Part shown: positions 6,011 through 63,573 of the stretch, piece after piece | Layout: every line of letters starts with the position of its first letter | How positions within the stretch are numbered: the stretch's first letter is position 1 | Assembly (NCBI RefSeq): GCF_988243305.1 | Contig: NZ_OZ547136.1 | Direction: 5' to 3' (one strand) | DNA: 64,000 bases | Notes under the pieces: model-generated | What the model was told of the DNA's origin: nothing | Seen by the model: the letters and a program-made list of their open reading frames with translations, nothing else | Databases searched by the model: none | Made by a program: the position numbers and the translations under genes

Positions 6011-6183
6011 GATGAGCATTCAGATAGTGGTTCACGCGCACGGGTTGCGCACCGCCGGAGTAAGGATTTACTGAGGCTAGCGACGCCATCATAACGAGCA
6101 AAAAGTGCGATCGTCAAAGGAGAATCGTGAGGAAATGCTGCATTGCTGACATTTACGCCAGCAATGCAACACAAAAGAACTTT

Positions 6184-14849: not shown

Positions 14850-15042
14850 TATTTTCTCTTTTCTGTTAATTATTGAGAATAATTATTACTTCACTCAATA
14901 AGCTGCGGATATAACATTCTGAACCGCAGCTATTTGTGAATCCTTTCACAGTATAAATTTCCCCACGCGCATAGCCTTAATATCAGCACGCAATATTTAT
15001 TTAGCGTTCGCCTTAATTACTCATAGCATTAAGGAAGATCAC

Positions 15043-16281
15043 ATGCCGCAACAAAATTATCTGGATGAACTCACTCCGGCTTTTACACCGTTACTGGCGA
15101 TTAAAGAAGCCTCTCGCTGTTTATTATGCCATGACGCCCCCTGTAGTCAGGCTTGCCCGGCACAGACCGATCCGGGGAAATTTATTCGCTCAATCTACTT
15201 TCGTAATTTTAAAGGCGCTGCCGAAACAATTCGTGAAAATAATGCCCTCGGTGCCGTTTGTGCCAGAGTGTGCCCGACGGAGAAATTATGCCAAAGCGGT
15301 TGTACCCGTGCCGGTGTTGATACTCCCATTGATATCGGTCGCTTACAGCGTTTTGTTACTGATTTTGAACAACAAACTGGGATGGAAATTTATCAGCCCG
15401 GTACTAAAACGCTCGGCAAAGTCGCCATTATTGGCGCAGGTCCTGCCGGATTGCAGGCCAGTGTGACGCTGACAAACCAGGGTTATGACGTCACGATCTA
15501 TGAGAAAGAAGCACAACCCGGTGGCTGGTTGCGTAACGGCATTCCGCAATTCCGGTTACCGCAATCAGTACTGGATGCAGAAATCGCCCGTATTGAAAAA
15601 ATGGGCGTGACCATTAAGTGCAATAACGAAATCGGTAAAACACTCACCCTGGAGCAGCTGAAAGCGGAAAACCGCGCGGTACTGGTCACCGTGGGGTTAT
15701 CAAGCGGTTCGGGGCTACCACTGTTTGAGCATAGCGACGTTGAGATTGCCGTCGACTTCTTGCAACGTGCACGACAGGCGCAAGGCGATATCAGCATTCC
15801 ACAAAGCGCATTAATTATCGGCGGCGGTGATGTCGCGATGGACGTAGCCAGCACGCTGAAAGTTCTCGGCTGTCAGGCAGTAACTTGCGTAGCGCGTGAA
15901 GAGTTAGATGAGTTTCCGGCAAGCGAAAAAGAGTTTGCCAGCGCCCGGGAGCTGGGCGTTTCGATCATTGATGGATTCACGCCAGTAGCCGTGGAAGGCA
16001 ATAAAGTCACGTTTAAGCATGTACGGTTACCGGGCGAACTGACGATGGCGGCAGATAAAATTATTCTCGCCGTCGGTCAGCATGCCAGACTGGATGCCTT
16101 TGCGGAGTTAGAGCCGCAGCGTAACACCATCAATACACAAAATTACCAGACCCGCGATCCGCAAGTCTTTGCTGCTGGCGATATTGTTGAGGGGGACAAA
16201 ACCGTGGTCTATGCCGTGAAAACCGGGAAAGAAGCCGCCGAGGCGATTCATCACTATTTAGAGGGAGCTTGCTCATGTTAA
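15043..16281 (+). CDS. preT: NAD-dependent dihydropyrimidine dehydrogenase, subunit PreT
   Basis: 412-aa product with Fe-S cysteine cluster and FAD/NAD GAGPAG Rossmann motif. Confidence 0.95.
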
Positions 16282-20187: not shown

Positions 20188-21186
20188 TTATTTCTTGCTG
20201 AATTCAGCCAGGTTGTCTTTATCTACGCCAACATAAGGTACGCGGACCACTTTGTTGTCGATTTTCCAGTTGGTGCCATCAGCCGCACCTTTGCCATCGG
20301 CCAGGTTTTTCGCCAAATCAAAGGTCGCTTTCGCCTGGTTGTTAGCATCGTTCAGTACGGTGCCCGCCAGTGCACCGGATTTCACCAGCGCCAGCGCTTC
20401 TGGCAGCGCATCGACGCCAAACACCGGAATGCTGGACTTGTTGTGTGCTTTCAGTGCTTCTACCGCGCCCATTGCCATCGCATCGTTGTTGGCGATAACC
20501 ACTTCGATTTTGTTGGCGTTCGGGCCAGACAGCCAGGCGTCCATCTTATCTTTCGCCTGAGCGGTATCCCACATAGCGGTATCTAACTGTAACTGTTCAG
20601 TTTTGATGCCTTTGTCGTTTAATTCTTTAATCACGTAAGTGGTACGTGCTTCTGCATCCGGATGGCCCGGCTCACCTTTCAGCAGTACGAACTGAATCTG
20701 ACCGTCTTTGTTCAGATCCCAACCCTGATTCGCCGCCCAGTGTTTAGCAATCAAATCGCCCTGAATAATGCCGGACTCTTTGGAGTCAGTGCCAACGTAG
20801 TAGGCTTTGTCGTAGCTATCCAGCGCCTTACGAGACGGTTCTTTGTTGAAGAAAACCACCGGCACATTTTGCCCACGCGCTTTCTCAATCACCGTACCCG
20901 CAGCTGCCGGGTCAACCAGGTTGATTGCCAGTGCCTTCACCCCTTTCGCCAGCAATACGTCGATCTGATCGTTCTGCTTGGACTGGTCATTCTGAGAATC
21001 ATTCATCAGCAGCTGAACATCTGGCGCGGCTTTCGCATCTTGCTCAATAGCCTTGCGCACTACAGACATAAAGTTATCGTCGTACTTATAGATTGTTACA
21101 CCAATGCGAGTATCAGCAGCGTGTGCAGCGGCACCGAATAACATGCTGGCCATCACAGCAGACAGGGTTAACACCTTCTTATTCAT
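20188..21186 (-). CDS. mglB: D-galactose/D-glucose periplasmic binding protein
   Basis: 332-aa product [45 protein letters not shown]... Confidence 0.97.
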
Positions 21187-21437
21187 GGTATCTCCGGTTT
21201 TTCTTATGCAGGGTAGTGCTTGAGATAAATGCTCGGCGGGGCAGTAGAGTTAATGAAGTGTTACTGAACGCCGAAGCTCACTTTTTAAAATTCGTTCTTC
21301 CATGCCCGGTAACGCTCCAGAAAACGGCTTTAATTGTTGTTATGACGCTATTACCTCGGTGAAAGTGATTATTCACTGTTACATACGGGTTACAACGTTA
21401 AAACGGTGCAATCATAGCTATCACATTGTTAAGATAC

Positions 21438-21453
21438 TGTGAAATCACTCACA
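21438..21453. promoter_or_regulatory. CRP-like binding site upstream of mglB
   Basis: tgtgaaatcactcaca matches the CRP consensus TGTGA-N6-TCACA. Confidence 0.6.
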
Positions 21454-21455
21454 GA

Positions 21456-21471
21456 TTGAAAGCGGTTACAT
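21456..21471. promoter_or_regulatory. GalR/GalS operator-like sequence upstream of mglB
   Basis: ttgaaagcggttacat resembles gal operator half-sites (..agcggttacat); overlaps the galS stop codon. Confidence 0.45.
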
Positions 21472-22506
21472 CGCCTGATTTGTTGAGTTAGTGATCGCCG
21501 CCGCATTCTGGCGCGTTGCGACAGAATGGCGACGCACTAACGTCGGCATAAAACAGTGGCTAGCACGAGGATCAATATTGCCTGCTGCCCCCTGCAAGGC
21601 CAGTTCGGTGGCTAATTTAGCCATTGAAGCAATGGGATAGCGCACAGTCGTTAATTGCGGGTCGGTGTAACGGGCGATGGGAATATCATCGAAACCGATG
21701 ATTGAGAGATGTAACGGAATCGCAATGCCATTATCTTTTAATGCTGTCAGTGCGCCAGCGGCCATATTGTCGTTATAAGCAAATACAGCGGTAAGTTGTA
21801 GATTGCGCCCCAGCAGTTCAACCATCGCCGCCTCACCGCCCGGCATGTCCGGCGTGCCAGTGCCAATCCAGCTTTCCGGCGGAATAATATCCTGCTCTTT
21901 CAACGCACTCATCCAGCCTGCTTTACGCATGGCGTCATCTTCAATGCCGTGACTGGAAGAAAGATAACCAATACGTTGATGACCGTTATTCAGCAACATG
22001 CGCGTCGCCATTCGGGCACCGCTGAGATTATCCAGGCAAACGCAACGATGGGCGTACCCCGGCACAACGCGGTTGATTAACACCATACCGGGAATGTTAT
22101 CCATAAATTGTGCCAGTTCATCGTCACTCAATGCTTTTGAGTGAACAATCAATGCATTACAACGCTGGCGAATTAACACCTCAATGGCGTGACGCTCTTT
22201 TTCCGCTTCATGATAGCTATTGCCGATTAGCACGTATTTCTGATGCTGCTGGGCGACCAGATCCACCGCTTTTACCAGCGCGCCGAAAAACGCATCAGAA
22301 ACGTCCATCACCACCACGCCAATGGTGTCGCTAACCTGAGTTGCCAGCGCCTGGGCATTGGCATTTGGTCGATAATCCAGCTCACTAACGGCTTTCATTA
22401 CTGCTTCACGCGTGTCGGCACTGACCAGCGTGCTGTTATTGAGCACTCGAGAAACCGTTGCCACAGAGACGCCAGCCTGACGCGCTACATCACGAATGGT
22501 GATCAT
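21466..22506 (-). CDS. galS: Galactose isorepressor, LacI/GalR family
   Basis: Product [23 protein letters not shown]... with N-terminal HTH; 346 aa. Confidence 0.95.
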
Positions 22507-22647
22507 ATTCACTACCTGTTATGAGATTGCAGTAAATGACTGCTTGCTGGCGGCTATTTTGTCAGCACTGAATACAGGACTTCGTGAATCGAGTCACAGC
22601 AATGGAAACGGTTACAGCCGTTTTGTTAACGAATGTGATCCAGATCG

Positions 22648-63180: not shown

Positions 63181-63573
<393 letters not shown>

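Follow-up and report, generated by a model that had tools for sequence, protein, structure and literature searches.

The mglBAC control region of Escherichia coli at the 3' end of galS: a known operator and CRP block, its conservation, and a lineage-specific stop-codon overlap

Related control regions

Transcription of the mglBAC operon is activated by the cAMP receptor protein (CRP), repressed by GalS and GalR and induced by galactose, as described in a 2011 mBio paper, by Kinnersley (2021) and by Kaplan et al. A close counterpart among described systems is the P1 promoter of galETKM, which answers to the same repressors and the same inducer and in which a sigma-70 promoter is activated from a CRP site immediately preceded by a 16-bp GalR/GalS operator. 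The galE operator and CRP site are centred 19 bp apart, at -60.5 and -41.5, whereas the corresponding spacing in mgl is 18 bp. Kaplan et al. give the position of galE OE as 'around -60'. The mgl region differs further in having a single ChIP-supported operator, with neither an internal OI/HU loop nor a second promoter, and in relying on GalS, not GalR, as its main repressor (Kinnersley 2021).

The promoter of galS itself provides another point of comparison. Read on the minus strand, it follows the same order as mgl, from operator to CRP site to promoter, with the operator ATGGAAACGGTTACAG at 22602-22617 and a CRP-like sequence, CGTGAATCGAGTCACA, at 22583-22598 (unless marked as K-12, coordinates are those of the window, the whole 64,000-nucleotide stretch of contig NZ_OZ547136.1 that was analysed). 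It departs from mgl in the gap between the two elements, which is 3 nt rather than 2 nt, and in a CRP core that carries one mismatch. A GalR ChIP-chip peak reported for the galS promoter at K-12 position 2241771 (Qian 2016) converts to 22609. The same study lists a second, internal galS operator at K-12 2241611-2241626, and the Reg-Seq authors describe a site for an unidentified activator near -95 of galSp.

The lac locus shares with mgl a gene order in which the gene for a LacI-family repressor immediately precedes its target operon and is transcribed in the same direction (lacI-lacZYA). A further likeness, which for galS holds in Escherichia, is a repressor stop codon placed inside an operator that abuts a CRP site. 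At the K-12 lac locus the lacI stop codon TGA falls inside GGCAGTGAGCGCAACGCAATT, the operator O3, and the CRP site follows directly. O3 is an auxiliary operator, the main operator O1 being situated at the transcription start site (TSS), and CRP binds at the class I position -61.5 in lac, whereas the mgl site is of class II.

The mgl operator and CRP site

The window comes from the chromosome of E. coli. Of 5426 complete E. coli genomes, 5425 contain a match to a 501-bp query taken around the site, with galS and mglB as the annotated genes. K-12 NC_000913.3 is collinear with it, such that window position x corresponds to K-12 position x + 2,219,162; coordinates published on NC_000913.2 were carried to the later K-12 version by an offset of +1978, verified from the mglB coordinates. 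The minus strand encodes mglC, mglA, mglB, galS, yeiB and folE. According to the open reading frames and the K-12 annotation, the coding sequence of galS, the LacI-family gal isorepressor, occupies 21466-22506 (K-12 2240628-2241668), and that of mglB, which encodes the periplasmic galactose/glucose-binding protein and is gene 1 of mglBAC, occupies 20188-21186. The interval between them, 21187-21465, measures 279 bp. From 21100 to 21600, K-12 and the window differ by 5 SNPs only, none of them in the motifs, and the 34-bp block considered here is found unchanged at K-12 2240600-2240633.

In this block an earlier note, made from the sequence of the window, had placed a near-consensus CRP site and, 2 bp further on, an operator-like 16-mer. 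Direct reading returns exactly these coordinates, with tgtgaaatcactcaca at 21438-21453, 'ga' at 21454-21455 and ttgaaagcggttacat at 21456-21471. Read on the minus strand, from the end of galS toward mglB, the region consists of AAT CAG GCG ATG TAA, CCGCTTTCAA, tc, TGTGAGTGATTTCACA, gtatcttaacaatgtgatagc, TATGAT, tgcacc and G.

The sequence TGTGAAATCACTCACA at 21438-21453, or TGTGAGTGATTTCACA on the minus strand, is an exact match to the CRP core, agreeing at 10 of 10 positions with TGTGA-N6-TCACA, a core of which 2 exact copies occur in 64 kb against 0.01 expected. The composite of CRP site and operator is rarer still: CRP-N3-TGNAANCGNTTNCA occurs once in the window even when 2 mismatches are allowed, with 0.00 expected from 100 shuffles. 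Between the end of the CRP core and the mglB start codon (ATG at 21186) lie 251 nt, in agreement with the roughly 250 bp given in the earlier note. The centre of the site, at 21445.5, stands at -41.5 relative to the TSS at 21404, a class II position computed here from a single genome-wide TSS dataset in which this start has 6 reads.

Published genetics point to the same element. A C>A change at 2,238,630, reported to have risen alongside an operator change during adaptation (Kinnersley et al. 2021), converts to 21446, inside the CRP spacer, where the plus strand carries C; the element that bears this adaptive change at mglB has been published under the name CRP activator site. In the Reg-Seq papers, mglBp is treated as a confirmed CRP-activated promoter. 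The other exact TGTGA-N6-TCACA in the window, TGTGAATCCTTTCACA at 14935-14950, is located 93 bp upstream of a plus-strand ORF of 412 aa (15043-16281) and is, on sequence, a candidate CRP site.

The adjoining GalS/GalR site, here termed O_mgl, reads ATGTAACCGCTTTCAA on the minus strand (21456-21471) and is centred at -59.5 from the mglB TSS, again as computed from the start with 6 reads. Its identification as a GalR/GalS-type operator is borne out by Qian et al. (2016), who list TTGAAAGCGGTTACAT at K-12 2240618-2240633, coordinates that convert to 21456-21471, and who find a GalR ChIP-chip peak at 2240625 that they assign to mglB, inferring the site TTGAAAGCGGTTACA; the peak position converts to 21463. 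Their operator consensus, GTGNAANC.GNTTNCAC, is a 16-bp hyphenated dyad with critical positions 3, 5, 9 and 15. Of the 12 positions specified by this consensus, GTGNAANCGNTTNCAC, the mgl operator ATGTAACCGCTTTCAA matches 10, among them the four critical ones; it departs from the consensus only at its two ends, positions 1 and 16. A degenerate operator core with 1 mismatch is not rare by itself (4 found in the window, 3.4 expected). Exact matches to the core TGNAANCGNTTNCA number two, one being the mgl operator and the other the operator of the galS promoter (22603-22616).

The operator has also been a repeated target of selection. Kinnersley et al. describe a G>T change located 3 bp beyond the end of galS that renders mglBAC semi-constitutive, and the 2021 study found that the operator change C>A at 2,238,647 swept all three chemostats. 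This coordinate converts to 21463, that is, to the central G at operator position 9 (C on the plus strand), so that the position-9 G>T is a change selected repeatedly under glucose limitation. One table of Qian 2016 labels the mgl operator 'OE (galS)' and not mglB. The label 'O (mglB)' is given there to GTGCACCGGATTTCAC, at 20370-20385 within the mglB coding sequence, a site based on in-silico and 3C data and absent from the ChIP-chip peaks of that study. A plus-strand terminator-like match at 21462-21474 was rejected, as it is the operator dyad read antisense.

The mglB promoter

The mglB TSS at 21404 on the minus strand derives from the supplement of Kim et al. (2012), which gives NC_000913.2 2238588(-), a 5'UTR of 218 nt and 6 reads, and the conversion of its coordinate was checked. 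The sequence reported upstream of this start is CTGTGAGTGATTTCACAGTATCTTAACAATGTGATAGCTATGATTGCACCG (CTGTGAGTGATTTCACAG...TATGATTGCACCG). Although its reads are only 6, the start falls exactly where the CRP site and the -10 element would place it. The latter, TATGAT at 21411-21416 on the minus strand, occupies -12 to -7 from the mapped start, and the conservation of CTATGAT exceeds 90% in 80 species. The long mglB leader that the earlier note had deduced is thus real, at 218 nt, and comparison with the mapped positions disclosed no mglB operator or CRP site elsewhere in 21187-21465.

A consensus promoter scan did not report the native mglBp, which is no surprise given that class II CRP promoters of this kind lack a -35 element. 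It returned instead a downstream match, TTGTAA-16-AATAAT, which is not the native start. The AATAAT of this match (21368-21373, minus strand), preceded at 16 nt by TTGTAA, is a cryptic -10 one mutation away from consensus. It apparently corresponds to the cryptic -10 of the Reg-Seq papers, in which a mutation at about '+30' of mglBp creates a new TSS.

Another 5' end in the data of Kim et al. (2012), with 9 reads, lies at +79 (window 21326). As a second promoter it is disfavoured, having no credible -10 and lying 10 nt downstream of a 3' end seen by Term-seq; a processing site would be more likely.

Conservation of the control region and the end of galS

Across the mglB loci gathered from 80 Enterobacteriaceae species, the arrangement of operator and CRP site is strictly maintained. 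All 80 carry ATGTAACCGnTTyCAA, 2 nt and TGTGAGTrAwTTCACA upstream of mglB with zero mismatches to this degenerate pattern; the operator half-site ATGTAA and both CRP half-sites are invariant. From the CRP core to the mglB ATG, 77 loci have 239-252 nt, while two have 221 nt and one has 445 nt. A highly similar mgl regulatory region is reported for Yersinia, which has no galS (the 2011 mBio paper), and the operator is therefore independent of galS.

The claim that the operator overlaps the galS stop codon is literally correct for the window. The last codons of the galS reading frame, ATG (Met) at 21471-21469 and the stop TAA at 21468-21466, both fall inside the operator 16-mer at 21456-21471, where the stop takes up operator positions 4-6. 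This overlap is the exception among the species compared. A stop inside the operator is found in 6 of 80 scorable galS ORFs, namely those of the window, four Escherichia loci and one Cedecea, in a count that comprises the window and 79 loci and leaves out L009, where galS is frameshifted. In the other loci the stop codon precedes the operator, at a distance of 12-15 nt in 73 of them and of 3 nt in the remaining one. The close approach of galS to the operator is general, a distance of at most 15 nt being seen in 79 of 79 loci with a scorable galS ORF. In the locus left out (L009 1-2215, Citrobacter amalonaticus AUH_CA_2023_1), galS is split across three reading frames, through pseudogene formation or assembly frameshifts.

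Comparison of the codons accounts for the difference. E. coli reads TCA ACA AAT CAG GCG ATG TAA where Citrobacter reads TCA TAA AGT TGG GCT ATG TAA, with identical spacing to the operator, and the ACA at 21481-21483 takes the place of the Citrobacter TAA. The Escherichia lineage having lost its original stop 12 nt upstream, the ORF ran on to the operator's own in-frame TAA. An ancestral C-terminus ending in ITN[S/L] was thereby replaced by ITNS-TNQAM in E. coli, an Escherichia-specific extension of 5 codons, T-N-Q-A-M, at 21469-21483 on the minus strand. Absent from most of the species compared, the literal overlap cannot be a design feature on which the system depends. On these sequence comparisons, the overlap is a derived, lineage-specific accident, a by-product of the operator's in-frame TAA, and it is probably inconsequential.

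No minus-strand terminator is predicted between the galS stop and the mglB promoter, and there is no room for one before the operator, from which it follows that galS transcription must enter the block of operator, CRP site and promoter. The 3' coding region of galS contains a strong local hairpin, CGCCAUUCUG-N11-CAGAAUGCGGCG, at approximately 21497-21530 on the minus strand. The 70-nt segment 21475-21544 of this region has a minimum free energy (MFE) z of -5.8 here, and its structure is weaker or absent in most other genera.

Regulatory model and alternative readings

Taken together, the published operator of Qian 2016, the adaptive mutations at 21463 and 21446 and the TSS of Kim 2012 identify the 34-bp block, at a probability of about 95%, as the core of cis-regulation at the mglBAC promoter of E. 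coli, the already known region that the earlier note had considered probable. The minus strand is ordered as galS ATG-TAA, operator, 2 nt, CRP site, -10 TATGAT, TSS 21404, 218-nt leader and mglB. From its class II position, cAMP-CRP would activate RNA polymerase; with galactose absent, GalS, and more weakly GalR, would sit on the adjoining operator and block activation, and D-galactose would bring about release of the repressor. The block may operate by crowding out CRP or by contact with the polymerase alpha-CTD, as made by GalR at galE OE. The 16-mers lie only 2 nt apart, so that bound repressor would overlap the full 22-bp footprint of CRP, as is also stated by Kaplan et al. from EcoCyc. 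The operator and the CRP site of mgl are textbook components of the gal regulon and therefore matter little as a finding; their bases are well known for the adaptive mutations that they acquire under glucose limitation. What is added here is a coordinate map (TSS 21404, CRP -41.5, operator -59.5, 218-nt leader) and the recognition of the stop-codon overlap as a recent, lineage-specific accident and not a design principle.

Two readings that would deny the block its function at mglB carry little weight. Chance matches to short consensus sequences would suit the frequency in the window of degenerate operator cores with 1 mismatch, which is about that expected, but the composite motif, with 0.00 expected, is invariant in 80 species and coincides with published binding and genetics (Qian 2016; Kinnersley et al.), so that coincidence can for practical purposes be dismissed. 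The idea that the operator serves mainly galS, as a distal looping partner of the galS promoter operators ~1.1 kb upstream, and not mglB, draws on the 'OE (galS)' label in Table 1 of Qian 2016 and on 3C contacts among GalR operators. The ChIP table of the same study, however, assigns the peak to mglB, operator mutations de-repress mglBAC, the operator stands 2 nt from the class II CRP site of mglB in 80 of 80 species, and it is reported in Yersinia, where galS is lacking; this role is accordingly very improbable.

A further proposal, which bears on the coupling of galS transcription to mgl regulation that the earlier note thought possible, leaves the control of mglBAC intact and assigns the operator an additional effect, whereby bound repressor would also act as a roadblock to polymerase finishing galS, giving rise to stop-less galS mRNA, tmRNA-tagged GalS and extra negative feedback. 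By analogy with lac this might be envisaged, as galS transcription must run into the operator block, with no terminator or room for one before it, the two abut within 15 nt in all 79 scorable loci, and the K-12 lac locus has the same layout. LacI autoregulation through a roadblock at O3 is described in PMC3711431. The proposal is nevertheless unlikely, given that the literal stop-in-operator overlap is not conserved, that galS already controls its own expression through the operators at its promoter and that neither an experiment on galS nor data on tagging of GalS were found. Also counted against it, GalR at galE OI is reportedly a poor roadblock in its native context. A search of the Term-seq supplements of Adams 2021 for RNA 3' ends assigned to galS gave 0 occurrences of 'galS'. 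If such a roadblock did operate, it would constitute a second galactose-sensitive autoregulatory loop for GalS, equivalent to that of LacI at O3, and polymerases that passed it would enter the mglB leader, whose 5' hairpin could cap and stabilise the galS 3' end. Two side questions are now amenable to experiment, the one concerning roadblock feedback on galS like that on lacI, the other the role of the mglB leader hairpin and a ~69-nt RNA.

The mglB leader

The 5' untranslated leader of mglB, 21187-21404 on the minus strand, has a length of 218 nt (Kim et al. 2012) that is conserved in 77 of 80 species; the 2011 mBio paper describes it as 'about 250 bp'. Its first ~66 nt (+1 to +66, 21339-21404, minus strand) are predicted to form a single long hairpin in nearly all species. 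MFE z-scores for the first 70 nt, calculated against dinucleotide shuffles, average -2.16 over 80 sequences and -1.82 over 24 representatives less than 75% identical (p = 3e-5), and folding is stronger than that of the reverse complement (-0.84; paired p = 5e-4). The same measure shows no structure in the segment +71 to +140 (z +0.29) or in the last 70 nt (+0.73), and the z of the whole leader in E. coli, -0.54, is unremarkable.

A covariance model built on 18 sequences gives one match per locus, starting from the predicted +1, in 62 of 68 sources; the match in the window is 21334-21404(-). In the hairpin alignment, 88.6% of cells pair, compared with 85.0 +/- 0.5 after shuffling (0 of 500 shuffles reached the observed value) and with 40-51% when the partners are slid. 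Double-sided changes amount to 37 cells against 14.9 +/- 3.2, and the closing helix, +1 to +4 with about +63 to +66, is 99.2% paired and shows switches from U-A to C-G. Since these counts come from related sequences and lean towards the model, covariation support for the hairpin is moderate rather than decisive. The three SNPs between K-12 and the window in the hairpin segment all preserve pairs. RNAalifold on MAFFT alignments of the whole leader and of +1 to +80 found essentially no structure, a result attributable to the middle stems, which shift register between lineages and are misaligned, so that the covariance model was needed to recover the fold. In two loci (L061 and L067), deletions of ~28 nt remove part of the hairpin region.

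An abundant RNA 3' end maps to leader position +69 (21336, minus strand), 3 nt beyond the base of the hairpin. In the Term-seq supplements of Adams et al. (2021) it appears at K-12 2240498(-) with 92,182 reads, a Rho score of 0.44 ('No') and an intrinsic terminator score of 1.47, and is called as neither type. Together with the 5' end at +79, it suggests cleavage in the A-rich linker that leaves a stable fragment of ~69 nt, or a protected galS 3' end. The hairpin could cap the mRNA at its 5' end and so stabilise it, give rise to a stable 5'UTR RNA of ~69 nt, or form the protected 3' terminus of galS transcripts.

Further downstream, the leader contains a likely Spot 42 pairing core, UACCCUGC, within an invariant block at 21208-21215 on the minus strand, located by duplex prediction with nt 1-8 of K-12 Spot 42. 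This block, ACUACCCUGCA, and the upstream UUAUCUC (21222-21228, minus strand) are complementary to Spot 42 nt 1-18, and the duplex predicted between these nucleotides and leader positions 176-198 has an energy of -18 kcal/mol. The CCCTGC block is invariant or nearly so across species. Work in Salmonella has established, with compensatory mutants, that Spot 42 represses mglB via its 5'UTR, and predicted seed pairing of ACUACCCUGCA with Spot 42 is consistent with this validated repression. One locus, that of Citrobacter amalonaticus S646 (L024 2089-2500), carries an insertion of ~195 nt between the hairpin region and the Spot 42 block.

Searched against Rfam, the leader of the window gave no match at the gathering score, and only noise at E<=10. 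Matches at the gathering score occur in the window at the Peptidase-S11 RNA, 6015-6095 (-), with 72.8 bits, and at the L25 ribosomal protein leader, 63242-63267 (+), with 46.9 bits.
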